From contig JACKDP010000002.1 of assembly GCA_020633435.1 (NCBI GenBank), positions 631,788 to 695,787 of the forward strand: DNA of 64,000 nt, read 5' to 3'. The translations under genes and the position numbers were made by a program. Source of the stretch: Myxococcales bacterium. Its GTDB lineage: Bacteria > Myxococcota_A > Bradymonadia > UBA7976 > UBA1532. The notes beneath the pieces were generated by a model that was not told where the DNA came from, made no database searches, and worked only from the letters and a program-made list of their open reading frames with translations. Shown one piece after another: positions 9,337 through 62,447 of this stretch (position 1 is the stretch's first letter; each line of letters begins with the position of its first letter).

Positions 9337-9394
9337 GGGCTCCTCCAGGACGGACCGCCGCCATGGTGAGGAGTGGGGCCCCCTCGGTGCAACC

Positions 9395-11125: not shown

Positions 11126-11192
11126 TCACGAAGCGTGGACCGTGGCGCCCCTCCGGTGCAACGTCCCCGCATCCACCCCCGCGAGAGGGCTC

Positions 11193-39500: not shown

Positions 39501-39738
39501 CGTCGAGGGGCGCGGCGTCCCGGGCGGCCGCGTCCACGTCGGCGTCGCGGGGGGTCGCGTCGACCTGGGCGTCGCGGACGGTGGCGTCGACCCGGGCGTC
39601 CGGGGGGCCGGCGTCCATCACCCGCCCGTCCGCGGGCGGGCGGGCGTCGGTCGGCCGGGCATCCACGGAGCCAGCGGGGCCGTCATCACAGGCCACCCCG
39701 ACCAGCGGGAGGAGAATCCAGAGGAGTGTCGCGCGCAT
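36577..39738 (-). CDS. lipoprotein (1053 aa) with an N-terminal lamin-tail domain (LTD) and a C-terminal PPDK_N-type (PEP synthase/pyruvate phosphate dikinase N-terminal, ATP-grasp-like) domain
   Basis: Lipobox signal MRATLLWILLPLVGVAC. The LTD is IQINEAMSDNDGAWVDEVGEADDWFELVNTGDAPLSLAGYSASDD. The C-terminus has FRSSSNTEDLPGFNGAGLYTSTSG...VVWASLYNTRAFDERAYHGI...VAMGVLIQPAF...ANGVVITRNI, the nucleotide-binding signature of the PEP-utilising enzyme N-domain. Confidence 0.7.
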   Translation of the reverse strand: MRATLLWILLPLVGVACDDGPAGSVDARPTDARPPADGRVMDAGPPDARVDATVRDAQVDATPRDADVDAAARDAAPLDAAPVDAVVDAVVDAVVDAGPPPDPIQINEAMSDNDGAWVDEVGEADDWFELVNTGDAPLSLAGYSASDDPDERHPLPAIELGPGETAVFWADDTPAQGPRHLPFKLSAGGETLYLFSPGGRRIDAFELPPATPNDSFQRYPDGRGQPVLCRWATPERSNGGRCGPPPPPEIPDDVEYPPYEWADPWPFPPTPLAITELALRPAGFIEVLNVTGEVVELEGFHLRVAPHRPGVPWPVVGEGAALAWPVPRLEPGARVSVPVPAAAMAPIAAEPEYEGVVTLFADGRAFPVERVDFMWWPEGAALTRQPDATGRFRFCARATPGAANDACDPLASRPVGNRVRHLRTPGDFAALGGGGVASGIESVKFVVDMANGDVVHLLSTAWDLHYTFVREEIEGLPHLDRCDPVQEAEQRIGWRTFSEINYFSVEDRIYLLGTLVNHGGSGLHTVEFTPGDNIIAQQMRRAFFGVMNHVLQPQAFFLRPQTGDQVEEMAALGGLAPLVGPNAPFRDLVYQPLTETVGFGVLTFVPTQDLATTPLGPRTIVVTDQVPNDIALVGGLITEAFQTPLAHVNLLSRNRNTPNMALRDARQDPRVAALLGQLVRLNVRGGGFDLEVADPAEAQAFWDARLPQGEPLVPRLDREARGVLPLAGLGIADLPRVGAKAAQLAELGRVVSRRRGCEGPVEVPRDAAGLALAHSLDHYAASGALDRLAALQARPDFADPVVRAAGLAEVRDLIRRHPVDPAVLAEVEAYVAQHYGDAKVRFRSSSNTEDLPGFNGAGLYTSTSGRLGDNDASIADALRVVWASLYNTRAFDERAYHGIAQDGVAMGVLIQPAFLSEQANGVVITRNIIDPIRDDAYINIQRGEATVTNPAPGVTTEQIIYRYVRQPRINILGRSSLTRGEPILSDDEIIHTACVVKAIHDHFRPLIDPAGADRWFAMDVELKLLGPERRLLVKQARPYSFGAREIPADCREL

Positions 39739-39782
39739 GGCGCCAGCATAGCGGGCCCGGGCGCACGGGCCCAAGGGCCGCC

Positions 39783-40736
39783 TCAGCGGCGCAGGCGCGC
39801 GGCCTCCAGCGCGGCCTGCAGCTCGGTGGGATCCAGATCGACGCCGATCATCACCAGCGTCGTCCGGGGCGTCTCATCGGCCCGCCACCGCCGCGCCGTC
39901 TGCAGGCTGAAGAGGTCGTGCACGCCCTGCAGCACCACCCGGCGGCCGCCGCCCGCCCGGATGACACCCTTGTACCGATAGAGATCGTAGGGCCGCTCCC
40001 GCGACAGGCGGCGCAGCCAGGCGCCGAGCCGCCGCAGATCGTGCGGGCCGTCATCTTCGAGCACCACGCTGCCGAACGGATCGTGGGCGTGGCCGCCGAC
40101 CCGCACCAGCCGCCGCAGCCGGAAGCGCCCGAAGGCGTCCACGTCGAGCACCTGAGCCGGCTCGACGGCGCCGTGCAGCGCCTCGATGCGGGTCGCCGTC
40201 GGGTTGGCCTCGGCCAGGCGCGCGCTCACGGCCGCCATCGCCTCCGCGTCCACCAGGTCGGCCTTGCTGACGACCAGCACGTCGGCCAGCGCCACCTGCG
40301 TCTGGGCCACCGGGCTGTTGCGCAGGTCGACGATGCCGTGCCGGGCGTCCACGACGGTGACGATGGCGTCCAGGCGGAAGGCCTCGGCGATCTCGTCGCG
40401 CCGGCTGAACGTCTCGGCCACCCCCGCCGCGTCGGCCATGCCCGTCGTCTCCAGGATGACGCGGTCGAAGTCGATGTGCCCCCGCTTGCGCGCCTCGATG
40501 AGCGACCGGAACGTGTGCCGCAGGTCCACCTCGACGGCGCAGCAGATGCAGCCGTTGACCCGCCGCACCATGCCCGGGCTGATCTCCTCCAGGAGCTCCG
40601 AGTCGATGTTGGCGGCGCCGAACTCGTTCTCCACGACGACCACGCGGTGGGCGTCGATGTGGCGCAGCAGGTGCCGCAGCAGCGTAGTCTTCCCGGCCCC
40701 CAGGAAGCCGGTGAGGATGGTGACGGGCGTCGTCAT
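39783..40736 (-). CDS. COG0523/CobW-family G3E GTPase (putative zinc metallochaperone)
   Basis: ILTGFLGAGKTTLL (P-loop), the GCICC metal-binding motif, SKADL, and a CobW C-terminal domain. The start overlaps the stop of the upstream MutH-like gene (ATGA). Confidence 0.85.
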   Translation of the reverse strand: MTTPVTILTGFLGAGKTTLLRHLLRHIDAHRVVVVENEFGAANIDSELLEEISPGMVRRVNGCICCAVEVDLRHTFRSLIEARKRGHIDFDRVILETTGMADAAGVAETFSRRDEIAEAFRLDAIVTVVDARHGIVDLRNSPVAQTQVALADVLVVSKADLVDAEAMAAVSARLAEANPTATRIEALHGAVEPAQVLDVDAFGRFRLRRLVRVGGHAHDPFGSVVLEDDGPHDLRRLGAWLRRLSRERPYDLYRYKGVIRAGGGRRVVLQGVHDLFSLQTARRWRADETPRTTLVMIGVDLDPTELQAALEAARLRR

Positions 40737-44578: not shown

Positions 44579-44694
44579 GGCGCCCTCATGCCCGAGGCGG
44601 CGCGCGGACGCAACGACGGCGACACTCCCCCTGGTCCCGGGGGTCCGAAGTGTGGATCATGCGGGGCGACGGGGGCGCGCTCCAGGGAGGGATC

Positions 44695-47600
44695 ATGTCT
44701 GCACGGCCAAACCGGGTAATCCGTATTCTTTTCGCGGCGTTGCTGCCACTCTGGGGCGGCGGCTGCAGCGAGGATGACGGATCGGGGAAGGTCGCAGACG
44801 CGGCCCAGGACGCCGCCCAGGGGCGCCAGGACCAGTTCCGGCCGCAGCCGGACATGCAGCCGTTCGACCTGGCCGTCGTCCCGCCGCCCCGCGACGCGGC
44901 GGTGCCCGACGCCGCGCCGCTGGACGCCAGCCCGCCCGACATGGCCGTGCTGCCGCCCGACATGGCCGTGCTGCCCCCCGACATGGCGGTGTCGCCGCCC
45001 GACATGGGTGCCCCCGACATGGGCTGTGCGGCGCGGGAGACGTGCCATAACGGCATCGATGATGACTGCAACGGCATCGTGGACGACCCGCTCGTCTGCG
45101 ACCAGGAGCTGCCGCCCTGCGTGGCCGACATGCCCTGCTTCACCGGGCTCGTGGGCGTCTGCGCCGTCGGCACCAGCCGCTGCCCGAACGGGCCGGAGGG
45201 CGAGGCGGCCTGCGACGCCCTGGAGCAGCCGGCGGCCGAGGTCTGCGATGGCGCCCTCGACGAGGACTGCGATGGCAACGTCGACGAGGGCTTCGGCCTC
45301 GACGAGCCGTGCGAGGCCGGGGTCGGGAGTTGCCGCGCCCTCGGCGTCTTCGAGTGCGCCCCGGACGGCGGCGCGCGCTGCACCGCCGCCCCGCGGGGCG
45401 CCCGCCTCGAGCGCTGCGATGGCATCCCGGCCGACGAAGACTGCGATGGCACGGTGGACGAGGGCTTCGAGGACCTGGGCCAGCCCTGTCAGGTAGGCCT
45501 GGGCATCTGCGAGGCCGCGGGCGAGATCATCTGCGCGGCCAACGGCATCAGCACGCGCTGCTCGGCGCGGCCCGCGGGCCCCGGCAGCGAGTTGTGCAAC
45601 CAGGCCGACGATGACTGCGATGGCCGGGTGGACGAGGTCTTCCCGGAGCTGGGCCAGGCCTGCGTGCTCGGCCTCGGGGCCTGCCGCGCCGAGGGCGTGC
45701 GCGTCTGCTACAGCGAGAACCGGACGTACTGCAACGCCCAGCCGGGCCTGCCCGACCTGGAGACGTGCAACGCCATCGACGATGACTGCGATGGCAACAC
45801 CGACGAGGGCCCCGATGGCCGCCCGCTGACGGTGGCCTGCTACGGCGGCCCCGAGGGCACCGCCGGCGTCGGCCTCTGCCGCCAGGGTCGGCGGGCCTGC
45901 GGGGCCCAGGGGCTCGGGGCCTGCGAGGGCGAGGTCGATCCCGCCGAGGAGATCTGCGACGGCAGCGACAACGACTGCGATGGCCGCGTGGACGAGGGGG
46001 TCGACGGGGCGCCCATCCGCCAGCCCTGCTACGCCGGGCCCGACGGCACGGCGGGCGTGGGGGCCTGCCGCCAGGGCAACCGGACGTGCCGCAACGGGGC
46101 GCTGAGCCTCTGCGAGGGCCAGGTCCAGCCCCGCGTCGAGATCTGCGACTCCCTCGACAACGACTGCAACGGCCAGGTCGACGACGTGGCGGTCGGCGGC
46201 TGCGACTGCGTCCCGCTGGTGCGCCGCGCGTGCTACTCGGGGCCCGACGGCACCGAGGGCGTCGGTCGCTGCCGGGCGGGCAACCAGAACTGCCGCGCCG
46301 ACGGCACGGGCTACGGCGAGTGCTTCGACGAGTTCACGCCGAGCGCGGAGGCCTGCAACGGCGAGGACGACGACTGCGACGGCCGGGTGGACGAGGAGGT
46401 CGACGGCATCGGCGCGGCGTGCAACGTGGGCCTGGGGGCCTGCGGCGCGGCGGGCGTCTTCATCTGCGATCCGGCGCGGGGCCCGCGCTGCAGCGTGAAC
46501 GCCGGCGAGCCCAACCCCGAGACCTGCGATGGCATCGACAACGACTGCGACGGCGCCACGGACGAGCAGTTCCGGCTGGGCCTGGTGTGCCGGCTGGGCA
46601 TCGGGGCCTGCGCCCGCCAGGGCGAGGTCATCTGCGCGCCGGATGGCAGCACCTCCCAGTGCTCGGTGGAGCCTGGGCAGCCCGAGGAGGAGCGCTGCGA
46701 TGGCCTCGACAACGACTGCGACGGGCGCAGCGACGAGGGCCTGAACCTGGGCCTGCCCTGCGAGGTCGGCGTGGGCGCCTGCCTCGCGCGGGGTGTCCGC
46801 GTCTGCGGCAACGACGGGGTGGTGAGCTGCTCGGTCGCCCCGGGCGCCCCCCAGGCCGAGCGGTGTGACAGCCGCGACAACGACTGCGATGGCTCGACGG
46901 ACGAGGGCTTCGGGGTCGGCGACGCCTGCACGGCGGGCCAGGGCGTCTGCGCCCGGGACGGCCTGCGCCAGTGCTCCGCCGCCGGCGGCGTGGAGTGCAG
47001 CGCCGCGCCCGCGCCCGGCGGCGCGGAGCTCTGCGACGGCGAGGACAACGACTGCGATGGGCGCACCGACGAGGACTTCGCGCTCGGCGTGGCCTGCGCC
47101 GCGGGCGTCGGCCAGTGCCGCGCCAACGGCCAGACGATCTGCGCCGCCAACGGCCAGGGCACGACGTGCGGGGCCCAGCCCGGCGCGCCAGCAGCCGAGA
47201 CGTGCGACGACCGCGACAACGACTGCGATGGCCGCGCCGACGAGGACTTCGACCTGGGCAGCGCGTGCACCAACGGCGTGGGCGCCTGCTCGCGGGCCGG
47301 CGTGACGCGGTGCCAGGGGGGCGTGGCCGCCTGCGACGCGGTGCCAGGCCAGCCCCGGGCCGAGACGTGCGAGGGCACCGACCAGGACTGCGATGGCCGC
47401 ACCGATGAGGGCTTCCCCGTCGGCGACCGCTGCGAGGCGGGGGCGGGCGCGTGCCTGGAGGTCGGCGTGACGCGCTGCCTGGCCAACGGCCAGATCGAGT
47501 GCAGCGCCCGGGCCCATGACCCCGAGCCCGAGCTCTGCGACAGCCGCGACAACGACTGTGATGGGCGCGTGGACGAGGGCTTCGCGCTGGGCCAGGCGTG

Positions 47601-50600
47601 CAGCCGGGGCCAGGGCATCTGCCTGCGGGACGGCACCACGCGCTGCGGCCAGAACGGCCAGCTCGAGTGCAGCGCCCTGCCGGGCGTCGGCCGGGCCGAG
47701 ACGTGCGACGGCCGCGACGAAGACTGCGACGGCCGCACCGATGAGGGCTTCCCGGTGGGCCAGCCCTGCGAGGCGGGCGTGGGCGAGTGCTACCGGGCCG
47801 GGATGCTGCAGTGCGCCATCGGCGGCGGCACCCAGTGCAGCGTCCAGGCCGGCGCCCCGCGGGCCGAGCGCTGCGACGCGGTCGACAACGACTGCGATGG
47901 GCGGTCCGACGAGGGCCTGAACCTGGGCCAGGCCTGCATCGCGGGCGCGGGCCAGTGCGAGGCCGAGGGCACGCTCGCCTGTGGCCAGGCCGGCGCGGTC
48001 ATCTGCCAGGCCGAGCAGCCGATGGGCGGCGCCGAGGAGTGCGACGACCTCGACAACGACTGCGATGGCCGCGTCGACGAGGGCGGCGTCTGCCCCGACC
48101 TGGAGCCGCCGGACGTCACGCTGCTGCTGGAGCCCGTCTTCGTGCTCTTCAACGGCCTGGCCCGCGTCACGGTGACGGTCACCGATGACCAGGATCCCGA
48201 TCCCCAGGTCACCGCGACCATCGACGGGATGCCCATCCCCCTCGACGCCAACGGCCAGTACCTCTACCAGGCCAACGAGGCCGGGGCGCACGAGGTCGTG
48301 GCCGTCGCGGTGGACGCCGCCGGCCGCCGGGGCGAGGCGCGCGACTACTTCCGCGTCCAGAACCTCGACGACAACGAGCCGCCGGTGGTGCGCATCATCG
48401 CGCCCGCCGACACCAGCGAGCTGACGGGCGTGACCGAGATCCATGGCCGCCTGGAGGACCCGAACTTCTTCTCGTGGAAGCTCGAGATCAGCTTCGACCA
48501 GCAGAACTGGCAGGTCATCAACACGGGCATGACCAGCGGCCCCGACGTCATCGTGGGCTCGATCGATCCCACCGTGATGGCGCCTGGCTTCGTCTACGTG
48601 CGCCTGACCGGCGAGGACGAGAACAGCCTCAACCAGTTCCAGATCGTCACCTACCGCGTGCCGGACGGGGTCTCCCTGGGCGAGACGAAGCTGGGGATCC
48701 GCGACTTCGAGATGCCGGTGAAGGGCTTCTCGCTGGCCTTCGACCGCGAGTACGACAGCCGCCGCAAGTACCTCGACGGCGACTTCGGCTTCGGCTGGAA
48801 GCTCACGGCCACCCGCGTGGAGGTGCGCGAGGACCTGCAGAGCAACGTCATGGTCGCGCTGCCCGATGGCCGCCGCGAGGTCTTCGCGATCGCGTACAAC
48901 TTCCCGGGATTCTTCCCCTTTGGGACGATGAGCTACGTCGCGCCGCCGGGCGTGTACTCCACACTGACGTCGCCTCAGGCCTGCGCCGTGGCCAACACGG
49001 CCCAGGGCGTCGTCTGCTTCGACACGGGCCGGCCGCCCTCTTTCAGCGTCTCGAACTACGTGCTGACCACCCAGGACGGCACCCGCTACGAGATCCATGA
49101 CCAGCGCGGCCTGGACCGGCTCACCGATCGCGAGGGCAACCAGTTCACGTTCGCCCGCGACCGCATCACGTCCAACGTCGGCGTCGAGATCACGATGGCT
49201 CGCGACGCCTTCGGGCGCATCACGTCCATGACGGACCCGCGGGGCGGCATCATCGAGTACCGCTACGACGCGGTGGGCAACCTGACGGAGGTCGAGGATC
49301 AGGCGGGCGGCGTGCAGACCTACGTCTACGACGACGAGCACGGCCTGCTGCGCGTCCTCGGGCCGGACGGCAACCCGGTCATCCGCACCGAGTACGACGA
49401 GGACGGCCGCAAGGTCCGCGACGTCGACGCCCTCGGCAACGAGACCGTCTACGACTACGACTTCGACAACCGCATCCAGACGGTCACCAACCGCCGCGGC
49501 GACGTCATCGTCTACGAGTACAGCGAGATCGGGCAGATCCTGTCCCGCGTCGACGAGATGGGGAACGAGGCCACGTTCGACTACAACGCCCTCGAGCAGC
49601 TCGTCGGCGAGACCCTGCCGGATGGCTCGACGTTCGGCTACGCCTACGACGCCCGGGGCAACCAGACGCGGGTGACGCTGCCGACCGGCGAGTCCAACAC
49701 CTTCGCCTTCGACGCCTTCGGGCAGCCCGTCGCGATGACGGACCCGGCCGGGCACGTCAACCGCATGACCTACGACGCCTCGGGGCGGCTGACGTCCATT
49801 GAGAACGGGGCCGGCCACGTCCTGACGCTGGAGTACGACGCCAACGGCAACCGCCAGGCGGTCGTCGAGCCCGACGGCCAGCGGACGACCTACGGCTACG
49901 ACGCCCTCGGCAACATCACGAACATGGCGCGGGACGGCGGGTTCACCCGGACGTACGCCTACAACGCCGCCTCCGAGATGACGCGGCTGGTGGACTCCGA
50001 CGGCAACGCCATGGACCTGGACTACGACGCGGTGGGCCGGCTGCAGCGCGTGGTCGACCCGCTCGGCGGCGAGATCATCGCCGAGCGCGACGGCCTGGGG
50101 CGCATCACCCGCCTGACGGACGCCGATGGCTCGGTTCGCCGCTACCGCTTCGAGCCCCGCGGGCTGATGGAGGCCATCACCGACCCCAACGGCGGCGAGA
50201 CGACCTACGCCTACGACGCCGAGGGCGCGCTCGTCGGCCTGACCTACCCGGATGGCGCCGAGGTCCAGCTCACCCGCGACGCGGGCGGGCGCATCACCTC
50301 CCGGCGCGATCCGCTCGGCAACGTCGCCAGCTACCAGCTCGACGCCATGGGCCGGGTCATCAGCCGCACGGACCGCAACGGCGATCCCATCGTCTACGAG
50401 TACAACACGCTCGGTGACATGGTCCGGCGGAGCGACGCCGACGGCGAGACGACCTACGAGTACGACACGGTCGGCCGCCTGACGCGGGTCGTCAGCATCG
50501 AGGACGTCATCGTCTACGAGTACGACGAGGACGACCGCCTCGTGGCCGAGGAGCCCCTGGCCGGCTTCCGCCTGGAGCACACCTGGGACGCCGCCGCGCG

Positions 50601-52212
50601 CCGGGCCGCCACCCGCGGCCCCGAGGGCGAGTCCACGTTCGACTACGACGCCGGCGGCCGCCTGGCCACCGTGGACGACCCCGTCCTCGGCCCCATCGAC
50701 TTCGTGCGCAACCCCGAGGGGCGCCTGACGGGCATCCGCTACCCCAACGGCGTGGCCATCGACTACACCTACGACGCCATGGGCCGCCCCGTCCGCTGGG
50801 AGGCCCGCGCCGCGGGTGGCGCCGTCGTGGCCGGCGAGACGTGGACGTTCGACGCCGTCGGCCGCCCCACCCGCGTCGAGCGGGAAGACGGCCGCACGTT
50901 CGAGCTGACCTACGACGCGGCGGGCCAGATCACCCGGTCCGTCCTGCGCACCAACGGCGCCGTCACGCGGGACGTGGCCTACACCTACGACGCCCGCGGC
51001 GGCATGACCTCGCGCACCGTCAACGGCCAGCTCGCCGCGCACCAGCTCGACGCCGACCAGCGCCTCACCCGCGACGGCACCTGGACGTACCGCTACGACG
51101 CGGCCGGCAACCTGGTGGAGCGCACCCGCCTCGATGGGGCCGGGCGTGAGGCCTTCACCTACGACGCCGAGCGCCACCTGACGTCGTTCGCGCGCTTCAA
51201 CGGCCAGGGCGTCCAGCAGGCCGGCGTGATCTACCGCTACAACGGCCAGGGCGAGCGCGCCGCGCGCGTCGAGGGCGGCGTCGAGGAGCAGTACGCGACC
51301 AGCTTCGGCGAGCGCGGCTGGGTGCGCAGCCCGGCGGGCCAGACCACCCAGCGCTTCGTCTACGGCGACCAGTCCGACCAGGCCCTGGCCCTCGACAAGC
51401 CCGACGGCCCCGTCTACTTCGCCCTCGACGGCCGCGGCAGCGTGGCCGCCGCCTTCGACGGCGCGGGTCAGCTCGTCGGCCGCTACCTCTACGACGACTT
51501 CGGCGCCCTGCTCGACCAGGCCGGCCCCTTCACCTCGCCTCTGGGCTTCGAGGGCCGGCCCCGCGACCCGACGACGGGCCTCTACGACTTCCGCGCCCGC
51601 AGCTACGACCCGGCGGCGGGCCGCTTCCTCCAGCAGGACCCCGAGTCGGGCAGCCTGCAGCGGCCCATCACCCAGCACCCCTACCTGTATGGCGCCAACA
51701 GCCCGTGGTTCTACCGCGATCCGAACGGCCGGGCGGCGGCCATCAGCTACGCCTTCCTGTCGAGCCGCTTCGTCACGGGCTCCGGCAACGTGAACACGCC
51801 GAGCCATGGCGAGCTGCTGGGCGCGTTCATCGGCTTCATGCACGGCTTCTCGGCGGGCGCCTTCGTCTTCCTGGCCAACATCCTGGAGCTGAGCGGCACC
51901 GGGCAGGACATCAAGACCATCTGGGGCATCGCGACGAGCCGCACCAAGACGAAGCTCGACGAGATCGCCAACCTCCTCGGCCGCGGCGCGGCCCTGGACG
52001 ACAGCGGCTTCGCCGGCGCTTTCGTGAACGGCGCCAAGTTCCAGGTCGGCTTCAAGTTCTCCCTGAAGCTGCCCAAGCCCGTCAGCAAGGGCATCGCCCT
52101 CGCCGGCGGCAAGACGTCGAAGGGCGTCTGGGCCATCGAGAAGAGCGGTGGCGGCTTCAAGGAGGGCAACAAGCAGTTCCTGAACTTCCTGGAGCAGGTC
52201 GGCCCGCAGTAG
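44695..52212 (+). CDS. Rhs/YD-repeat polymorphic toxin lipoprotein (2505 aa): lipobox signal, PPDMAVL repeats, about 18 MopE-type Cys-rich repeats, YD-repeat shell, RHS repeat-associated core, C-terminal toxin domain of unknown type
   Basis: GGGAGGG RBS. The signal is MSARPNRVIRILFAALLPLWGGGCS. About 18 repeats carry E-x-CDG-x-DNDCDG-x-x-DEGF...C...G-x-G-x-C (for example ERCDSRDNDCDGSTDEGFGVGDACTAGQGVCARDG). There are dozens of YD repeats (YDAVGNLT, YDDEHGLL, YEYDTVGRLT and others). The RHS core is GLYDFRARSYDPAAGRFLQQDP...HPYLYGANSPWFYRDPNG, followed by about 160 aa of non-repetitive sequence with a hydrophobic stretch (LLGAFIGFMHGFSAGAFVFLANILEL). Confidence 0.85.
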   Translation: MSARPNRVIRILFAALLPLWGGGCSEDDGSGKVADAAQDAAQGRQDQFRPQPDMQPFDLAVVPPPRDAAVPDAAPLDASPPDMAVLPPDMAVLPPDMAVSPPDMGAPDMGCAARETCHNGIDDDCNGIVDDPLVCDQELPPCVADMPCFTGLVGVCAVGTSRCPNGPEGEAACDALEQPAAEVCDGALDEDCDGNVDEGFGLDEPCEAGVGSCRALGVFECAPDGGARCTAAPRGARLERCDGIPADEDCDGTVDEGFEDLGQPCQVGLGICEAAGEIICAANGISTRCSARPAGPGSELCNQADDDCDGRVDEVFPELGQACVLGLGACRAEGVRVCYSENRTYCNAQPGLPDLETCNAIDDDCDGNTDEGPDGRPLTVACYGGPEGTAGVGLCRQGRRACGAQGLGACEGEVDPAEEICDGSDNDCDGRVDEGVDGAPIRQPCYAGPDGTAGVGACRQGNRTCRNGALSLCEGQVQPRVEICDSLDNDCNGQVDDVAVGGCDCVPLVRRACYSGPDGTEGVGRCRAGNQNCRADGTGYGECFDEFTPSAEACNGEDDDCDGRVDEEVDGIGAACNVGLGACGAAGVFICDPARGPRCSVNAGEPNPETCDGIDNDCDGATDEQFRLGLVCRLGIGACARQGEVICAPDGSTSQCSVEPGQPEEERCDGLDNDCDGRSDEGLNLGLPCEVGVGACLARGVRVCGNDGVVSCSVAPGAPQAERCDSRDNDCDGSTDEGFGVGDACTAGQGVCARDGLRQCSAAGGVECSAAPAPGGAELCDGEDNDCDGRTDEDFALGVACAAGVGQCRANGQTICAANGQGTTCGAQPGAPAAETCDDRDNDCDGRADEDFDLGSACTNGVGACSRAGVTRCQGGVAACDAVPGQPRAETCEGTDQDCDGRTDEGFPVGDRCEAGAGACLEVGVTRCLANGQIECSARAHDPEPELCDSRDNDCDGRVDEGFALGQACSRGQGICLRDGTTRCGQNGQLECSALPGVGRAETCDGRDEDCDGRTDEGFPVGQPCEAGVGECYRAGMLQCAIGGGTQCSVQAGAPRAERCDAVDNDCDGRSDEGLNLGQACIAGAGQCEAEGTLACGQAGAVICQAEQPMGGAEECDDLDNDCDGRVDEGGVCPDLEPPDVTLLLEPVFVLFNGLARVTVTVTDDQDPDPQVTATIDGMPIPLDANGQYLYQANEAGAHEVVAVAVDAAGRRGEARDYFRVQNLDDNEPPVVRIIAPADTSELTGVTEIHGRLEDPNFFSWKLEISFDQQNWQVINTGMTSGPDVIVGSIDPTVMAPGFVYVRLTGEDENSLNQFQIVTYRVPDGVSLGETKLGIRDFEMPVKGFSLAFDREYDSRRKYLDGDFGFGWKLTATRVEVREDLQSNVMVALPDGRREVFAIAYNFPGFFPFGTMSYVAPPGVYSTLTSPQACAVANTAQGVVCFDTGRPPSFSVSNYVLTTQDGTRYEIHDQRGLDRLTDREGNQFTFARDRITSNVGVEITMARDAFGRITSMTDPRGGIIEYRYDAVGNLTEVEDQAGGVQTYVYDDEHGLLRVLGPDGNPVIRTEYDEDGRKVRDVDALGNETVYDYDFDNRIQTVTNRRGDVIVYEYSEIGQILSRVDEMGNEATFDYNALEQLVGETLPDGSTFGYAYDARGNQTRVTLPTGESNTFAFDAFGQPVAMTDPAGHVNRMTYDASGRLTSIENGAGHVLTLEYDANGNRQAVVEPDGQRTTYGYDALGNITNMARDGGFTRTYAYNAASEMTRLVDSDGNAMDLDYDAVGRLQRVVDPLGGEIIAERDGLGRITRLTDADGSVRRYRFEPRGLMEAITDPNGGETTYAYDAEGALVGLTYPDGAEVQLTRDAGGRITSRRDPLGNVASYQLDAMGRVISRTDRNGDPIVYEYNTLGDMVRRSDADGETTYEYDTVGRLTRVVSIEDVIVYEYDEDDRLVAEEPLAGFRLEHTWDAAARRAATRGPEGESTFDYDAGGRLATVDDPVLGPIDFVRNPEGRLTGIRYPNGVAIDYTYDAMGRPVRWEARAAGGAVVAGETWTFDAVGRPTRVEREDGRTFELTYDAAGQITRSVLRTNGAVTRDVAYTYDARGGMTSRTVNGQLAAHQLDADQRLTRDGTWTYRYDAAGNLVERTRLDGAGREAFTYDAERHLTSFARFNGQGVQQAGVIYRYNGQGERAARVEGGVEEQYATSFGERGWVRSPAGQTTQRFVYGDQSDQALALDKPDGPVYFALDGRGSVAAAFDGAGQLVGRYLYDDFGALLDQAGPFTSPLGFEGRPRDPTTGLYDFRARSYDPAAGRFLQQDPESGSLQRPITQHPYLYGANSPWFYRDPNGRAAAISYAFLSSRFVTGSGNVNTPSHGELLGAFIGFMHGFSAGAFVFLANILELSGTGQDIKTIWGIATSRTKTKLDEIANLLGRGAALDDSGFAGAFVNGAKFQVGFKFSLKLPKPVSKGIALAGGKTSKGVWAIEKSGGGFKEGNKQFLNFLEQVGPQ

Positions 52213-52237
52213 GCCGGCCGCCCCGGCTGGAGGTCCT

Positions 52238-52729
52238 ATGTCGGTCTTGCTCTCGGTGGCGCTGCTGGCGCCGCCCACCTGCGCCCCCGAGGCGCTCGCC
52301 AAGGTCGAGGAGGCGCTGGCGCAGGCGCCCGCGAAGCGTGCCCACGCGCTCGCCCTGCAGGGCGTGTCGGAGGCCTGCGCCCTGCCACCGAAGCTGGCGG
52401 CGGGCGTGCGGGGCGTGGCGGCCGCCCCACCCGACCAGGTCGCCCTGCTGGAGGCGCGGTGCATCACCCAGGCGACGGACCTGTGGACGCAGGCCTGCCC
52501 GGCCGGCGTGAAGGTCTTCGCCCAGCTCGCGAGCGCGGCCCCGGACGCCCGCCCGGCGCTCCTCCTCGCCGCCTGCCAGCTCGACCGCTTCGGCCTCACC
52601 CTGGCCCAGCTGCAGGGCGGGGACGTCTCGCCGCTGGGCGTCATGCTGGCCGCCGTCGTGCACGGTCCAGGCCGCGCCGCCCTCGTCCAGGCCCTCGTGC
52701 TCTCCCCCCGACCGGAGGCAACCCCTTGA
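52238..52729 (+). CDS. small protein (163 aa) immediately downstream of the Rhs toxin gene; candidate cognate immunity protein
   Basis: Starts 26 nt after the Rhs stop with a GGAGG RBS. The Ala/Leu-rich sequence has conserved Cys residues and a hydrophobic N-terminus (MSVLLSVALLAPPTC). The position is the one usually occupied by RhsI-type immunity genes. The stop overlaps the TTG start of the next gene. Confidence 0.45.
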   Translation: MSVLLSVALLAPPTCAPEALAKVEEALAQAPAKRAHALALQGVSEACALPPKLAAGVRGVAAAPPDQVALLEARCITQATDLWTQACPAGVKVFAQLASAAPDARPALLLAACQLDRFGLTLAQLQGGDVSPLGVMLAAVVHGPGRAALVQALVLSPRPEATP

Positions 52730-54201
52730 TTCGCCAGCTCTTTCTCCTCGCCGCCGTCGCCAGCCTCGTCGGCTGCGGCGGCGCTGCTACGCGGGCCCCG
52801 CGCCCCGACCTCGTCATCCTGCAGCTCAACGACGTCTACGAGGCCAACCCCGTGGGCGGCGAGGGCGGCCTGGCCCGGGTGGCGACGCTGCGCAAGCGCC
52901 TGGAGGCCGAGGGCGCGCCCGTGGTCACCGTCCTCGCCGGCGACTTCCTGAGCCCCTCCGCCATCGGGCTGGCCAAGGTCGACGGCGAGCGCCTGGCGGG
53001 CAAGCAGATGGTCGCCGCCTTCAACGCCCTCGGCCTCGACTACGTGACGTTCGGCAACCACGAGTTCGATGTCTCCGAGGCCCAGCTCCTCGCGCGCATC
53101 GGCGAGTCGAAGTTCACCTGGTTCTCCGGCAACGTCCTGCGGGGCAGCGGGGAGCCGTTCCCGGGTGTGCAGCCCCGCATCGTCCGCACCGTGCAGACGC
53201 CCTCCGGCGCCTGGACGCTGGGTCTGCTGAGCGTGACGCTCAACAGCAACCCCCACGACTGGGTCCGCTACGACGCCGACTACGTCGCGGTGGCGAAGCG
53301 CGAGGTCGAGGCCCTCAAGGCCGCCGGCGCCGACCTGATCGTCGCCCTCACCCACCTCGACCTGGACGACGACGAGGCCATCGCCGAGGACGTCCCGCCC
53401 GTGGACTTCATCCTGGGCGGTCACGAGCACGAGAACGTCCGCATCTATCGCGGCCGGGACTTCACCCCGGTCATCAAGGCCGACGCCAACGCCCGCACCG
53501 TCTACGTCCACCGCCTGACCCGCGGCGACGGCGGCGCCCCCACCCTGACGTCCGAGCTCGTGCGCATCGACGCCGCGATCCCCGACGATCCCGAGGTCGC
53601 GGCCGCCGCGAAGACGTGGACGGACCGCGCCTTCGACAGCTTCCGGGCCGACGGCCTGCAGCCGGAGCGCGTCGTCACCACCGCCTGGGTCGACCTCGAC
53701 GGCCGCGAGGCCAGCGTCCGCAACCGCAGCACCGACCTCACCCGGCTGCTCGCCGAGGCCGTCGCGGCGGGTGGCCAGGACGCCCAGGTGGCCCTCTACA
53801 ACAGCGGCTCCATCCGCATCGACGACACCATCCCGGCCGGCACCCCGGTCACGGAGTACGACGTCCTGCGCATCCTGCCGTTTGGTGGCCAGGTGGTCAC
53901 GGTCACCCTCACCGGCGCGGTCCTCAGCCAGGTCCTGGACGCCGGCCTCGCCAACCGCGGCAAGGGCGGCTACCTGCAGACGCTCGGCGTGGCCGGGACC
54001 CGCGGCGCCTGGACGCTCGGCGGCGCCCCTCTCGTGGCCGACCAGCCGTACCGCGTGGCGCTCAACGACTTCCTGCTGACGGGCAAGGAGGACAACCTGG
54101 GCTTCCTGAAGCCCGACGCCGAAGGCGTCAGCGACCGGCACGATGGCCCCGACCTGCGCCGCGCCTTCATCGACCGCCTGTCCCGGGGCGCCGACGGCTG
54201 A
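52726..54201 (+). CDS. bifunctional metallophosphatase/5'-nucleotidase (UshA-like) lipoprotein
   Basis: TTG start with a GGAGG RBS. The lipobox signal is LIRQLFLLAAVASLVGC. The calcineurin-like motifs ILQLNDVYE, GDFLSPS, GNHEFD and GGHEH are followed by a 5'-nucleotidase C-terminal domain. Confidence 0.8.
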   Translation: MIRQLFLLAAVASLVGCGGAATRAPRPDLVILQLNDVYEANPVGGEGGLARVATLRKRLEAEGAPVVTVLAGDFLSPSAIGLAKVDGERLAGKQMVAAFNALGLDYVTFGNHEFDVSEAQLLARIGESKFTWFSGNVLRGSGEPFPGVQPRIVRTVQTPSGAWTLGLLSVTLNSNPHDWVRYDADYVAVAKREVEALKAAGADLIVALTHLDLDDDEAIAEDVPPVDFILGGHEHENVRIYRGRDFTPVIKADANARTVYVHRLTRGDGGAPTLTSELVRIDAAIPDDPEVAAAAKTWTDRAFDSFRADGLQPERVVTTAWVDLDGREASVRNRSTDLTRLLAEAVAAGGQDAQVALYNSGSIRIDDTIPAGTPVTEYDVLRILPFGGQVVTVTLTGAVLSQVLDAGLANRGKGGYLQTLGVAGTRGAWTLGGAPLVADQPYRVALNDFLLTGKEDNLGFLKPDAEGVSDRHDGPDLRRAFIDRLSRGADG

Positions 54202-54243: not shown

Positions 54244-54897
54244 ATGGCCCGGCCCGTCCCCAACCTGCACCCCGACGCCGCCCACCCCGGCGCCGCCCCC
54301 GACTGCGCCGCCTGCGACGGCTCGGGCTGGGTCGCGCTGGACGAGCCGACGATCACCGTCGCCCCGTGCGCCTGCGTTCAGGTCTGCCCCCGCTGCGGTG
54401 GGAGCGGCCGGCTCGCTGGCGGCCTCGAAGCGTGCGCCTGCCACGCCGGCGCGGGGCGCATCGACCTGCTCAACGCCGCGGGCCTGCCCGCCCTGGATGC
54501 CCCCCTCGACCCCCCATCCCCCGCCCTGTCGGCGTGGTTTCAGCGCTATCGACCGGAAGATGGCTGGCCCTGGCTGCTCGTCACCGGCCCATCGCCCGGA
54601 CCAGTGACCGCCCAGCTCATCCGCCTCATCACCGGCGTCGGCGTACCCACGGCCCGGGTGACCGCCCACACCGAGACCGTCGACTGGCGTGCCTGGCGTC
54701 GGCTCGTGGTCTGCTACGACCTCGCCCTCCACGGACCGCGGCGCGCAGCCCGGCTGGTCGACACCTGCGCCGACCACGGCCTGACGCTGGTGCTCTGGTC
54801 GCCCATGGGCCTCTACCCCTCCGCCGGCCCCGGCCTCGACACGGCCATCGGCGACGACGCCGCCGCGACACTGCTCGAGCGCTGCGCCCTCGCCTGA
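54244..54897 (+). CDS. hypothetical protein with two DnaJ-type CxxCxGxG zinc-finger motifs
   Basis: CAACDGSGWV and CPRCGGSGRL. GC3-rich codon usage. No other recognisable domain. Confidence 0.5.
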   Translation: MARPVPNLHPDAAHPGAAPDCAACDGSGWVALDEPTITVAPCACVQVCPRCGGSGRLAGGLEACACHAGAGRIDLLNAAGLPALDAPLDPPSPALSAWFQRYRPEDGWPWLLVTGPSPGPVTAQLIRLITGVGVPTARVTAHTETVDWRAWRRLVVCYDLALHGPRRAARLVDTCADHGLTLVLWSPMGLYPSAGPGLDTAIGDDAAATLLERCALA

Positions 54898-55222: not shown

Positions 55223-56158
55223 TCAGGCCGCGCCGGCTCGGGGTCCCCTCGGGCGGGCGAAGGCCGGGGGCAGCGTGTGCGGCGGCCACGGGATCATCAG
55301 CTGCGTCGGGTCGGCCTGCCAGGCGTGGAAGGCCCGCGTCGCCCGCGAGTAGGCTTCGCGCAGGGCCTCATGGGCGTCGCGCCACTCCTGGTGGTGCTCC
55401 GGCGGGCCATGCACCACCGGGGCGGGACTCCGGTCTCGCACGCGCGGCTTCGTCATGGGGTCGAGGCGCCGCAGCGTCTCGGGATCGGGGATGCGCACGC
55501 CGGCCTTCTTCCGCTTCGGCCGCGCCTGGCTGGCCACGTCGTCAGCGAGCTGCCACATCAGCGCGCGGTGGTCCTTCGGGCTCAGGGCCTCGAGGCCGGG
55601 CAGCCGGTCGATCCGCACCGTCAACGTCCTGGGGTCCTGGCCGGCGTACGCAAACACGCCCTCCACCGGCTTGCCGAACAGCAGGAACGGCGTCGAGCAC
55701 GCGAAGAAGTCGTCGGCCGGGTGCCGCACCAGGAACTGCGCCGTGGCCTGGCCCATGATGTACTGCAGCCGCTGCAGGGCGTGCTCCTCGGTGGTGATCT
55801 GGATGCAGTGGTTCTGCTCAAGCAGGCTGCCGGTTCGCCCCAGCAACTGGTTGATCCGCCTGGAGATTTCTCGCAGCGTCCACTCCAGGAAGGCGCTCTT
55901 GTGGGCCAGGGTCGGCGCGCCGATGAGCAGGTGCAGGTGGTTGGACAGGAAGTGGAAGCCGTAGACGTCGATGAGCGGGAACTTCTCCTGGGCGCGGGCG
56001 AGGACGCCCTGGAGGATCTCGACGCACCTCTCGGTGGGGATGAAGGCGAAGCGGTCGTCGACGACCTTGCTGGTGATCTCGTAGAGCATCATCAGGACGC
56101 CGAGCCGGGCGCTCATGAAGGCGCGGTGGACGAGCTCGATCCTCAACTTCTGGGCCAT
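55223..56158 (-). CDS. IS200-like / REP-associated tyrosine transposase (RAYT, Y1 HUH family)
   Basis: From the internal ATG (MAQKLRIELVHRAF...). The HUH motif is FLSNHLHLLIGAP, and the catalytic Tyr region is GSLLEQNHCIQITTEEHALQRLQYIMGQATAQFLVRHPADDF (the W/Q-x-x-F-H-D...YI-x-x-NP-V pattern). The N-terminal 78 codons of the long ORF are Arg/Gly-rich and probably untranslated. Confidence 0.7.
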   Translation of the reverse strand: MAQKLRIELVHRAFMSARLGVLMMLYEITSKVVDDRFAFIPTERCVEILQGVLARAQEKFPLIDVYGFHFLSNHLHLLIGAPTLAHKSAFLEWTLREISRRINQLLGRTGSLLEQNHCIQITTEEHALQRLQYIMGQATAQFLVRHPADDFFACSTPFLLFGKPVEGVFAYAGQDPRTLTVRIDRLPGLEALSPKDHRALMWQLADDVASQARPKRKKAGVRIPDPETLRRLDPMTKPRVRDRSPAPVVHGPPEHHQEWRDAHEALREAYSRATRAFHAWQADPTQLMIPWPPHTLPPAFARPRGPRAGAA

Positions 56159-56406
56159 GGCGGGAGCCTCCGTGGTGAGTGCTCCCTTGCTTTCGGTCAG
56201 TCGCGGCGCGTGTCGCAGGATTTCTGAGAAAAAGTGCATCGGGCGACGCCCGCACGCTGTGGCCGCCGCTCCCCGCCGGGCCTGCCAACCTGGGACGCGC
56301 GCGCCCCACTTCGCCGGCCCACGCACCACCCCAGGCCCCCCCACGCGCTGGCACGGACGCTGCTTTCGCTCCCCCGCCGACAGGGAACGCACACCCGGGG
56401 GACTCG

Positions 56407-57783: not shown

Positions 57784-57882
57784 GCCCCGCCGGCCGCTTT
57801 CCCAGGGAACACGCGAGGTTGCGCGCGTGGCGCCGCGGCCGGCCGGGCGCTATGATGGGGCGTCCACCCCTCGGAGGTCCCC

Positions 57883-59253
57883 ATGGCACGCAGGCGGATC
57901 CGACTCCCCGGCCGACGGTTCGCGGCGCTGGTCGCCTGCGCCCCGCTCGTCGCCCTGCCGGCCCACGCCCAGGACGCCCCGCCCTTCGAGTGCGACAACA
58001 ACTTCGGCGAGTGCGGCACCCCCAACATGAGCGGCGGCGGGGGCGGCGGCGGGGGCGGCGGCGGGTCCATCCTCATCAACAACACCGACCTGGGGGACAC
58101 CTACCAGCACGCCGACGACTTCGATGACGACGGCCACGAGGATCCCACCGACAACTGCCCCCGCGCCCGCAACCCCGACCAGGCCGACGGCGACGGCGAC
58201 GGCCGGGGCGACGCCTGCGACAACTGCCTGGGCGCCGCCAACGCGGACCAGGCCGATCTGGACGGCGACGGCCTCGGCGACGCCTGTGATCCCGACCGCG
58301 ATGGCGATGGTGTGCCGGACGCCGAGGACTCCTGCCCGGGCGTGCCGAACCCGGCCCTCGGCGACGCGGGCCAGCCCGACCTGGATGGCGACGGCGTCGG
58401 CGACGCCTGTGATGAGGATCTGGACGGGGACGGCATCCCGTCCCTCGAGGATCCCTGCCCCCTGAACGCCGACGTCTTCGAGCCCGGCGAGGCCGCCGAG
58501 GCCGCGTGCTTCCCCGATCTGGACGGGGACGGCGTGGGTGAGCTGGATCCGCTGGCCCCCGACAACTGTCCGGCCGTGCACAACCCCGACCAGCTCGACC
58601 TGGACGGCGACGGCCTCGGCGACGCCTGCGATCCCGACGTGGACGCCGACGGCGTGCCGAACCTCCAGGACGACTGCCCGGCCGCGCCCAACCCCGACCA
58701 GGCCGACGCTGATCGCGATGGCCTCGGCGACGCCTGCGACGCGAAGTTCTGCTACACGGTCTTCGGCGACCAGCGAAACTGCCTCGATCCGGCGGCCCCG
58801 TTCGCTGTGTACTCCCCGAGCCTCCTCGTCCGCACCGGCGAGGCGGTGCGCCTGCGGCTCTTCGCCAACCGCGAGGGCCAGGCCATGCGCTACGTCTGGT
58901 CGCTGGAGTCCGCGCCTCGCGGGGCCCGCGCCAGCGTGCGGGCCGGCCGCGGGGCCGTGACGGAGTCGTCCCCGTACGAGTACCACTACGCCGCCGACGC
59001 GACCCCCACCATCACCCCCGACCGACCGGGCACCTACACCCTCAAGGTGTACGCCACCACGCTCTTCGAGGACGCGGTGAGCCGCGAGGTGGAGGCCAGC
59101 GCCTCCTGGACGCTGCGCCTCGAGGTGGAGGGCCCCGCCGTCGACGCCGAGCAGGCTGGCTGCCAGGCCGCGCCGGGCGCCCCCGCCGGTCGCTGGGCCC
59201 TGTGGCTCGGTCCCCTCGCGCTCCTCGTTCGCCGCCGCCGCCGCTGGGGCTGA
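57883..59253 (+). CDS. thrombospondin type-3 (TSP3) Ca-binding repeat protein with a C-terminal MYXO-CTERM sorting domain
   Basis: Signal peptide. About 14 D-x-D-x-DG-x-x-D-x-C-D repeats (for example DLDGDGLGDACDPDRDGDGVPDAEDSCP). The C-terminus GCQAAPGAPAGRWALWLGPLALLVRRRRRW is the MYXO-CTERM pattern (GC, hydrophobic helix, Arg cluster). Confidence 0.8.
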   Translation: MARRRIRLPGRRFAALVACAPLVALPAHAQDAPPFECDNNFGECGTPNMSGGGGGGGGGGGSILINNTDLGDTYQHADDFDDDGHEDPTDNCPRARNPDQADGDGDGRGDACDNCLGAANADQADLDGDGLGDACDPDRDGDGVPDAEDSCPGVPNPALGDAGQPDLDGDGVGDACDEDLDGDGIPSLEDPCPLNADVFEPGEAAEAACFPDLDGDGVGELDPLAPDNCPAVHNPDQLDLDGDGLGDACDPDVDADGVPNLQDDCPAAPNPDQADADRDGLGDACDAKFCYTVFGDQRNCLDPAAPFAVYSPSLLVRTGEAVRLRLFANREGQAMRYVWSLESAPRGARASVRAGRGAVTESSPYEYHYAADATPTITPDRPGTYTLKVYATTLFEDAVSREVEASASWTLRLEVEGPAVDAEQAGCQAAPGAPAGRWALWLGPLALLVRRRRRWG

Positions 59254-62438: not shown

Positions 62439-62447
62439 GGCTCCCTC

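Follow-up and report, generated by a model that had tools for sequence, protein, structure and literature searches.

Bacterial teneurin-like proteins (TLPs; Raoelijaona et al., Nat Commun 2026, PMC13018210; structures 9ifo and 9pt5) enclose a C-terminal domain (CTD) of ~15 kDa in a YD-repeat shell and release it by autoproteolysis, and teneurin-like YD-shell toxins with a signal peptidase II (SPII) lipoprotein signal occur in >20% of Myxococcota species (PMC13018210). M. xanthus encodes giant Sec-dependent Rhs proteins that are independent of type VI secretion systems (T6SS) and presumed to be exposed at the surface, namely Rhs4, Rhs5 and seven others (PMC10433427). Tse5 (RhsP1) of P. aeruginosa is an Rhs cocoon whose C-terminus is a pore-forming precedent (PMC9637101, PMC10684867; structure 8cp6). 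Here, we analysed an Rhs gene (44695..52212, forward strand) in a 64,000-nucleotide stretch, hereafter the window, of a Myxococcales bacterium (assembly GCA_020633435.1, contig JACKDP010000002.1, positions 631,788 to 695,787 of the forward strand). With surface Sec-dependent Rhs proteins, lipoprotein TLPs in Myxococcota and Rhs cocoons with pore-forming cargo on record, the protein is of a kind already known. Its MopE-array stalk on an Rhs protein, its C-terminal cargo domain (CT) family and the non-polymorphic, immunity-less pattern of that family appear undescribed in the searchable literature. The best explanation, which we consider on balance probable, is a Sec/SPII-exported Rhs lipoprotein that carries a caged, membrane-active CT on a MopE stalk and is aimed at non-kin.

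The forward-strand open reading frame (ORF) extends from 44650 to 52212, and translation from the ATG at 44695 gives a product of 2505 aa. A ribosome-binding site (RBS) read off the sequence (GGGAGGG, 44685..44691, forward strand) lies 3 nt 5′ of this ATG. The GC content of 70–77% across the window produces long ORFs in all frames; the Rhs ORF is clearly coding, because its third-position GC is 0.96 over 7.5 kb. The product is a genuine Rhs-family protein, with features beyond chance. It matched RHS_repeat (PF05593, 2.5e-89, 14 stretches) and TEN_YD-shell (PF25023, 2.1e-14) in Pfam, YD_repeat_2x (TIGR01643, 1.2e-75) in NCBIfam, and the Rhs-associated core model Rhs_assc_core (TIGR03696) with 58.1 bits against a cutoff of 32.5. 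All tested defining features of the Rhs/YD-repeat toxin-container superfamily are present, namely the shell, the core with its motif and the N-terminal plug. A preliminary description of this DNA, made from the letters alone, had proposed an Rhs protein with a YD shell and an RHS core, and these matches bear it out: the models that it named for a search (TIGR03696, PF05593 and PF11617) all gave a match, including the core model whose failure would have counted against it. Both motifs that it named were also located, GLYDFRARSYDPAAGRFLQQDP at aa 2295–2316 and PYLYGANSPWFYRDPNG at aa 2329–2345.

The N-terminus, MSARPNRVIRILFAALLPLWGGG followed by Cys, consists of a charged n-region, a hydrophobic core and then the Cys, so that a signal peptide up to a predicted lipid-acceptor Cys24 occupies aa 1–24 (44695..44766, forward strand, as are all parts of the gene given below). 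A pattern search for this signal-plus-Cys layout with a D/S/G-rich stretch behind it matched 25 of 27 family members, and the other two fit it by eye; the match in P0017, one of the 25, falls on an internal Cys, this protein being truncated at its N-terminus. The evidence for a Sec/SPII lipoprotein signal is strong at the level of sequence, and lipidation at Cys24 is predicted. In M. xanthus lipoproteins, Lys at position +2 is the inner-membrane retention signal (PMC3222651), and none of the 27 family members has Lys at this position. Together with published proposals for Myxococcota TLPs and Rhs proteins, the M. xanthus rule points to an outer-membrane or surface location. The following Pro/Asp/Ala-rich low-complexity tether with PPDMAV-type repeats (aa 25–116, 44767..45042) has no domain match in Pfam except the first MopE motif at its end.

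The tether leads into a MopE/PF11617 stalk of 18 units (aa 117–1132, 45043..48090), identified by Pfam, motif scan and Cys counts. Cu-binding_MopE (PF11617) matched in 12 stretches (8.5e-71, 234.2 bits vs. a cutoff of 27), and a scan for CxxxDxDC(D/N)G found the 18 units between aa 117 and 1116 with a period of 55–70 aa. The stalk comprises 17 full units, of which 15 contain six Cys and two contain eight, and one terminal half-unit; 106 Cys fall within aa 131–1130, and 3 in the 1375 residues after aa 1130. The lipoprotein signal, ~18 repeats and roughly 1000-aa arm of the preliminary description were therefore all recovered. In an AlphaFold2 (AF2) model, each MopE unit is predicted to combine an irregular Asp-rich loop with a small three-stranded sheet that comes after it. 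We infer a disulfide-stapled rod, probably stiffened by Ca2+ and some tens of nm long. The Pfam label "putative metal-binding" of PF11617 derives from M. capsulatus MopE. A copper-handling role, which the MopE repeats might suggest, was considered and not adopted. The identical type of MopE arm is fused elsewhere to fibrinogen_C, RCC1, FGE-sulfatase, LTD, PKD and other heads, and within this lineage it thus acts as a display stalk of general use.

Between the stalk and the first RHS repeat lie two Ig/FN3/PKD-like β-sandwich domains (aa 1133–1325, 48091..48669) and then the N-terminal plug, which together with the YD-repeat shell spans aa 1326–2265 (48670..51489). The two β-sandwich domains and the plug were seen in an AF2 model of aa 1005–1564 (alignment of 10 sequences; predicted local distance difference test [pLDDT] 80.9) and in structure comparison, which gave scores of 12.2 for fly teneurin, 11.9 for Tse5, 11.1 for the Tc toxin BC component and 9.3 for the bacterial TLP 9ifo. 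By this comparison, the predicted plug resembles that of T6SS Rhs proteins more than that of BiTLP. The distance from the Ig domains to the first RHS repeat is only ~170–200 aa. No propeller-sized insert was present in the AF2 model, and no NHL match was obtained with Pfam in aa 1130–1635 even at E values up to 10. Moreover, aa 1131–1522 showed no sequence similarity to any solved structure, the TTR/TIP/FN-plug region of BiTLP included. Over the whole protein, sequence matches in the Protein Data Bank (PDB) span Rhs, TLP and teneurin shells, with BiTLP as the best (1.7e-50) and teneurins around 1e-20.

The Rhs-associated core (aa 2266–2345, 51490..51729) carries aspartyl autoprotease motifs, DPES at aa 2315–2318 and DPNG at aa 2342–2345, the latter within PWFYRDPNG (aa 2337–2345). 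The P....DPxG motif is kept in all aligned relatives, and the upstream DPxx likewise. Judging from the motif and from solved Rhs/TLP structures (PMC13018210), autoproteolysis after G2345 would leave the CT caged in the shell. The CT itself (aa 2346–2505, 51730..52212 including the stop codon) belongs to an unannotated family, and it had no meaningful Pfam match.

The CT family was collected by an exhaustive HMMER search of 1.84 billion representatives at E values up to 1e-3; a word-indexed search with the CT alone gave one match and badly under-represents the family. The family comprises 34 representative clusters, and the match lies invariably in the C-terminal part of the protein, directly after P....DPxG in 28 of the 31 extracted family sequences. 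The carriers are MopE-Rhs proteins and Rhs proteins of other composition and N-terminal architecture, such as P0134 with Calx/cadherin-like repeats, and some are unrelated Rhs scaffolds from other, lower-GC organisms. Because it is found on Rhs proteins of quite different composition and architecture, the CT is, by sequence comparison, a portable Rhs cargo module.

An alignment of 27 CT sequences (A1) contains the invariant residues G35, F40, F47, A68, G142 and G146 and the near-invariant residues Y7, G39, T72, G101, G141, F143 and P159. In this alignment, no Asp, Glu, His, Lys, Arg, Ser or Cys of catalytic type is conserved. The A1 profile found no relative among solved structures, and the pore-forming Tse5 (8cp6) was unmatched even at E values up to 10. 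In the AF2 model of the CT (pLDDT 73.8 overall and >90 in the core), residues 26–54 and 61–87 are predicted to form a long helical hairpin whose first helix is a Gly/Phe-rich hydrophobic segment, and a β-hairpin and a C-terminal helix complete the predicted domain. The Kyte–Doolittle 19-mer maximum is 1.68. The predicted hairpin resembles membrane proteins, although a helical hairpin is a fold match of low specificity. By analogy with the precedents Tse5-CT and the BiTLP CTD, the latter being hydrophobic and able to permeabilise E. coli when sent to the periplasm (PMC13018210), the CT may be a non-enzymatic cargo that inserts into or permeabilises membranes.

Polymorphic toxin systems (sensu Zhang/Aravind 2012; Jamet and Nassif 2015) have variable C-termini, and the preliminary description had called the protein a polymorphic toxin. 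The C-termini of 31 MopE-Rhs proteins were compared, with shell identity taken over the last 600 shell residues. All 14 relatives with 35–56% shell identity carry the same CT family at 41–60% CT identity, and among them CT conservation equals or exceeds that of the shell. Between the window and its close relative L001, the CT is 88% identical with a dN/dS of 0.21, the shell 85% identical with a dN/dS of 0.21, and the Ig domains 91% identical with a dN/dS of 0.19. These comparisons showed that, within the subfamily, the CT co-diverges with the shell under equal purifying selection. An abrupt CT switch at DPxG among close relatives was not seen at any divergence level sampled, and tblastn searches of the window with core plus CT and with the shell found only the Rhs gene itself, and thus no orphan core/CT cassette. 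At the scale sampled, a variable CT therefore does not characterise this family. The polymorphism in the preliminary description did not hold up: what it had itself offered as refutation, a C-terminal region conserved in all relatives, is largely what was found (14 of 14, with a dN/dS equal to that of the shell), and the comparative genomics that it proposed for swapping of CT/immunity cassettes revealed co-divergence instead.

Another CT type, starting with FSxVSISISI..SLRSIYT, is confined to a more distant clade (shell identity 30–37%) and is conserved inside that clade. Three MopE-Rhs genes with this second CT type (L087 1..2867, L088 1..3004 and the contig of P0025) are each directly preceded, on the same strand, by a gene for a 1700–3080-aa Ig/PKD/FG-GAP repeat protein, which may be a partner gene specific to the second-CT clade.

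The preliminary description had placed a canonical immunity gene, with a strong RBS, 26 nt downstream of the Rhs gene. This gene, orf163 (52238..52729, forward strand, 163 aa), starts 25 nt past the TAG stop of the Rhs gene, and an RBS read off the sequence (GGAGG, 52229..52233, forward strand) lies 4 nt 5′ of its ATG at 52238; the strong RBS and the coding character stand, and the spacing is corrected by one nucleotide. Its third-position GC is 0.92–1.0 in its frame, and the dN/dS against the L001 orthologue is 0.46. With its coding-type third-position GC, RBS, dN/dS and position kept in L001, orf163 is very probably a real gene. The product is hydrophobic at its N-terminus and contains five Cys (four of these are kept in L001), and it is a candidate immunity protein. 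It gave no match in Pfam, NCBIfam or PADLOC. The only database homologues are in P0002, a 98%-identical contig, and in P0003/L001 (59%), and tblastn against 84 retrieved loci returned L001 as the sole match. The 59% identity is the lowest in the syntenic block shared by the window and L001, in which the other genes reach 64–91% and the CT 88%.

Directly after orf163 lies a 5′-nucleotidase/metallophosphoesterase lipoprotein gene (52726..54201, forward strand; Pfam Metallophos and 5_nucleotid_C, UshA-like NCBIfam matches), whose TTG start at 52726 overlaps the orf163 stop (TTGA) and whose RBS is GGAGG at 52714–52718. This overlap, which couples the nucleotidase to orf163 in translation, and the 25-nt upstream gap suggest that the Rhs gene, orf163 and the nucleotidase gene may form one operon; a promoter/terminator consensus scan of 44.3–54.4 kb was uninformative in DNA of 74% GC. 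The nucleotidase is the next gene downstream of the Rhs region in three loci at 74–84% identity, namely the window, L082 (11571..12278) and L001 (15504..16898). In L082, whose Rhs protein is 60% identical and has the same CT family, 70 nt separate the Rhs stop from the nucleotidase orthologue (74%), with no ORF in between. Because this junction lacks an intervening ORF, orf163 is probably a lineage-specific insertion at a conserved Rhs–nucleotidase junction, an accessory gene in the Rhs operon.

Seven loci with this CT family, besides the window and L001, were surveyed for the gene downstream of the Rhs gene. It encodes a Ser/Thr kinase in L081 (P0016), the 5′-nucleotidase in L082 (P0005), a convergent 221-aa product in L083 (P0009), MarR in L084 (P0010), a convergent 225-aa protein with a faint ankyrin signal in L085 (P0008), PilZ in L086 (P0014) and a 133-aa unknown protein on the contig of P0021. 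The products of six of these loci were compared, the P0021 contig being excluded from this comparison; in all-against-all BLASTP, none was related to another or to orf163. The three loci with the second CT type have no tight conserved downstream partner either. An immunity role of orf163 is possible, yet this CT does not require such a gene and is not as a rule accompanied by it. The "canonical" of the preliminary description has to be dropped for a gene whose homologues are confined to L001 and the 98%-identical contig and which is absent from L082, the seven surveyed loci having seven different genes after the Rhs gene.

The locus search used one genome per species and yielded two informative loci. 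L001, on the metagenome-assembled genome (MAG) contig JAWKQS010000044, contains a full-length orthologue (84% identity) whose neighbourhood is conserved, and L003, from a Myxococcales MAG, encodes a 34%-identical protein covering aa 64–2406; most other matches of this search covered the MopE arm only. The L001 orthologue is split inside the MopE array into ORFs 7024..9417 and 9480..14912, which could reflect a frameshift, a pseudogene or a repeat assembly error. In a search of 5.8 billion proteins, PF11617, PF05593 and PF25023 occurred together in 32 of the 120 best clusters, with lengths of 2149–4109 aa. The source-named members with MopE and Rhs parts all come from uncultured Myxococcota lineages (Myxococcales, Bradymonadia or "Deltaproteobacteria" MAGs), and several of these clusters carry the JGI names "RHS repeat-associated protein" or "Notch-like protein". 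By these counts, the MopE+Rhs architecture is a recurrent family trait and not peculiar to the window. The arm is thus less unusual than the preliminary description had held, the more so as Sec-dependent surface Rhs proteins of Myxococcota are already published.

As to delivery, the coding-type ORFs found in the 64 kb were all searched with Pfam. No T6SS, PAAR, VgrG, type VII secretion system, TraA/TraB or SitA-like gene was found in the window, and no T6SS gene in the flanks of nine related loci inspected. A linkage to T6SS/PAAR/VgrG or TraAB within 64 kb was accordingly rejected. Because the protein has a lipoprotein-type signal and the window has no T6SS/PAAR/VgrG/TraAB gene, Sec/lipoprotein display is the sensible delivery route. 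The preliminary description had argued for a display or delivery mode apart from the common ones, and the lack of T6SS/PAAR/VgrG genes in the window fits this; the coupling to outer-membrane exchange or kin discrimination that it added found no support.

Compared with TLPs, the window protein shares the SEC/SPII lipoprotein signal of their Gram-negative/Myxococcota members, the YD shell, an enclosed C-terminal domain (160 aa here) and variable N-terminal modules of adhesion type; the CTD of BiTLP is hydrophobic and permeabilises membranes, and the window CT likewise has a predicted hydrophobic hairpin. Unlike TLPs, it lacks the NHL six-bladed β-propeller, one of the three defining TLP HMMs. 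The β-sandwich domains and the plug are present, with no sequence similarity to the FN-plug/TTR/TIP of BiTLP. In addition, its N-terminal module is a MopE array, which is unmentioned in PMC13018210 or its supplements, and its CT is conserved and its downstream partner gene is not, whereas the TLP C-terminus is hypervariable. The large Rhs proteins of M. xanthus come from the same phylum and resemble the window protein in their signal sequences, their size (>1500–4000 aa), their independence of the T6SS and their presumed contact-dependent delivery at the surface. Most of the large rhs genes are conserved among clade members, as in the window family, whereas Rhs4 and Rhs5 are strain-specific kin-discrimination toxins on Mx-alpha prophages and the window gene has a conserved chromosomal neighbourhood and a non-polymorphic CT.

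Tse5 shares with the window protein the Rhs cocoon and a hydrophobic CT of ~150–160 aa. The Tse5 CT is non-enzymatic and membrane-inserting, as we propose by analogy for the window CT, and no sequence similarity between them could be detected; Tse5 is delivered by T6SS/VgrG, lacks a signal peptide and a stalk, and has a dedicated immunity protein. Export by Sec, surface anchoring and a contact-dependent C-terminal toxin from a YD-repeat protein are also known for WapA of B. subtilis (cited in PMC10433427). WapA is a Gram-positive protein anchored via cell-wall-binding repeats, in contrast to the lipid and the Cys-rich stalk here, and its C-termini are tRNases, highly polymorphic and accompanied by a neighbouring WapI immunity gene, unlike the window CT. 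Metazoan teneurins likewise have a YD shell preceded by Cys-rich extracellular modules, and Tucker et al. 2012 (PMC3278476), essentially the one paper on PF11617 in the searchable literature, aligned the 23-aa core of the teneurin Cys-rich region with this MopE motif. Teneurins are transmembrane proteins of type II with an NHL domain, a C-terminus outside the shell and no DPxG autoprotease motif, and they contain one MopE-like motif where the window protein has 18. Among myxobacterial surface systems, TraA has a recognition domain on a stalk of Cys-rich repeats (PMC5562445, PMC8546572), a head-on-stalk design as here, and the TraA-type repeat model was not among the NCBIfam matches of the Rhs protein. 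SitA proteins are lipoprotein toxins passed between cells (PMC5562445, PMC8546572); unlike the window protein, they are small, polymorphic and encoded next to a SitI immunity gene.

The favoured explanation can be set out as follows. The signal peptide with its lipid-acceptor Cys and the disordered Pro/Asp-rich tether would place the Rhs lipoprotein, which has no +2 Lys, at the outer membrane or the cell surface. The 18 MopE units and the two Ig-like domains would form a stiff rod that holds the cocoon away from the cell, and autoproteolysis after G2345 would leave the 160-aa CT enclosed in the YD shell, as Rhs/TLP structures suggest. On contact with a target cell, the CT would be released and would insert into, permeabilise or depolarise the membrane. 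The targets would be non-kin competitors or prey, reached through the generic membrane and not through a fast-swapping kin-discrimination cassette, a preference based on the conserved cargo and the lack of a conserved immunity partner. In this scheme, orf163 would be a lineage-specific accessory gene of the same operon, with an immunity role possible and not required. Several observations weigh against the explanation. The lipobox of the window protein is non-canonical (GGG directly before the Cys, with G at −3); many relatives carry Asp at +2, the E. coli inner-membrane signal; and the surface exposure that we infer for a 2500-aa lipoprotein with ~55 disulfides leans on a sorting rule borrowed from M. 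xanthus. Moreover, orf163 sits in the classical immunity position and is tightly operon-coupled. Highly diverse genes lie downstream of almost all TLPs, and one of them was shown to encode an immunity protein (PMC13018210), so the rapid divergence of orf163 does not exclude immunity; immunity could also sit elsewhere in the genome. Finally, a conserved CT without a conserved immunity gene is also expected of a structural, non-toxic role.

Some of these points favour a classical polymorphic toxin/immunity pair, in which a kin-discriminating CT and its cognate orf163 are co-expressed and orf163 protects siblings. The position of orf163 25 nt downstream on the same strand, its strong RBS without an intervening terminator consensus, its coding character with dN/dS <1, its same place in L001, the proven immunity protein among the diverse downstream genes of TLPs (PMC13018210) and the kin discrimination mediated by M. 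xanthus Rhs4 and Rhs5 (PMC10433427) all fit such a pair. However, the CT and orf163 do not co-evolve (88% vs. 59% between the window and L001), L082 lacks orf163 despite retained Rhs–nucleotidase synteny and CT family, the seven other CT loci have seven different downstream genes, and the CT is non-polymorphic among relatives, with no orphan cassettes and no Pfam, NCBIfam or PADLOC match for orf163; we therefore regard a toxin/immunity pair as unlikely. The conserved CT could alternatively mean that the protein is a non-toxic, teneurin-like adhesion or recognition protein, whose cocoon and CT have taken on, by domestication, a structural or membrane-anchoring role and whose MopE and Ig stalk mediates cell–cell or cell–matrix contacts in a social bacterium. 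The constraint on the CT, equal to that on the shell, the missing conserved immunity gene, the many non-toxin heads of MopE stalks in the lineage, the nearby cohesion gene mtsC with two more MopE lipoproteins, and the resemblance of the teneurin Cys-rich region to the MopE motif (PMC3278476) are consistent with such a role. Against it, every relative has a complete aspartyl autoprotease motif, which the domesticated metazoan teneurins lost (PMC13018210), the CT family also occurs on unrelated Rhs scaffolds of lower-GC organisms, as a portable cargo would, and a hydrophobic, shell-enclosed cargo of ~160 aa has toxic precedents in Tse5 and BiTLP. An adhesion role thus seems rather improbable to us, a little more so than the toxin/immunity pair.

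An Rhs effector delivered by a T6SS or another injection system, with the machinery encoded outside the window, would account for a plug and shell that are structurally closest to T6SS Rhs cores and for PDB sequence scores comparable to those for BiTLP. None of the marks of T6SS Rhs effectors, namely a PAAR, prePAAR or VgrG-interacting N-terminus, the lack of a Sec signal and linked vgrG/EagR/T6SS genes, is seen in the window protein. Pfam and NCBIfam gave no PAAR, prePAAR, VgrG-binding or DUF4150 domain, the family as a whole keeps the signal peptide and its lipobox-type Cys, the disulfide-rich N-terminal region of ~1100 aa is incompatible with cytoplasmic folding and VgrG loading, and the 64 kb and the nine sets of flanks lack T6SS genes. 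Injection is thereby effectively refuted, and we give it hardly any weight. The stalked lipoprotein with a caged, membrane-active cargo can be taken one step further, to a weapon for predation on or competition with other species: a stalked cocoon with a generic membrane cargo for which no dedicated immunity gene would be needed, because the membrane target is universal and the cargo is caged until contact. This extension is speculative, and we think it unlikely as it stands.

Upstream of the Rhs gene is a divergent EamA transporter gene. Downstream, orf163 and the 5′-nucleotidase lipoprotein gene are followed by two unknown genes, a trypsin-like protease, MtsC and a CDF transporter, and then by a pirin-type gene and two more MopE-repeat lipoproteins. 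Two ORFs, 54244..54897 (forward) and 55223..56392 (reverse), are without counterpart in the otherwise syntenic L001 block, and the product of the former is CxxC-rich with DnaJ-zinc-finger-like motifs (Pfam 8.3e-4, below cutoff). The MtsC gene (57856..59253, forward), 5 kb from the Rhs gene, encodes a thrombospondin type-3 repeat protein that is an equivalog of NF047638 ("cell-cell cohesion MYXO-CTERM protein MtsC"; 541 bits vs. a cutoff of 350), with a C-terminus of Cys, a hydrophobic segment and an Arg-rich tail. This match and the related loci, from Myxococcota, Bradymonadia or Myxococcales MAGs, put the source of the window in Myxococcota. The adjacent MopE-repeat genes (61329..62447 and 62448..63881, both reverse) encode one protein with 4 motifs (37 Cys) and one with 9 motifs (54 Cys), which share a related C-terminal domain (...VYFQEGD..GAGRV.G.L.C.NV.G.GL.E.TC.INK...); a lipoprotein signal (LVGLVGC) is present in one of them at least. 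In this genome, MopE lipoproteins form a paralogous class.

Farther away in the window, a gene for ~900 aa (30606..33335, forward) matched the shoulder domain of the eukaryotic Major Vault Protein (MVP; 2.1e-10) and the vault repeat (1.6e-07) in Pfam, with no NCBIfam assignment; a bacterial MVP-like gene is unusual. Another gene (36577..39873, reverse) encodes a fusion of ~1100 aa, in which a Lamin Tail Domain and PPDK_N, the ATP-binding domain of pyruvate phosphate dikinase, form an odd combination. The ORF 3..1829 (forward), cut by the window edge, encodes a Ser/Thr protein kinase with an FGE-sulfatase-like domain; a Ser/Thr kinase gene likewise lies directly downstream of the related Rhs gene in L081. 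An IgGFc_binding-domain protein (9395..11125, reverse; 2e-62) and a 1530-aa protein with a Met-zincin motif (10686..15275, forward) are encoded by ORFs that overlap by ~440 nt, and at least one of the two starts is probably misplaced.

The practical value of these findings is modest, since surface-anchored, Sec-dependent Rhs/teneurin-like toxins in Myxococcota are already published. The locus offers two unannotated modules suited to family models, the ~56-aa six-Cys MopE stalk unit and the rare CT family. The family may also record how MopE-type Cys-rich modules became joined to a YD shell in a prokaryote, a pairing seen in the extracellular region of teneurins, and it adds a data point on the origin of teneurin-type architectures. 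If the favoured explanation is correct, uncultured Myxococcota would be able to deploy an Rhs cocoon without a T6SS, on a long Cys-rich lipoprotein stalk, and would maintain a vertically conserved, probably membrane-active cargo without a tightly linked immunity gene, a pattern that departs from the arms-race logic assumed for Rhs and polymorphic toxins.

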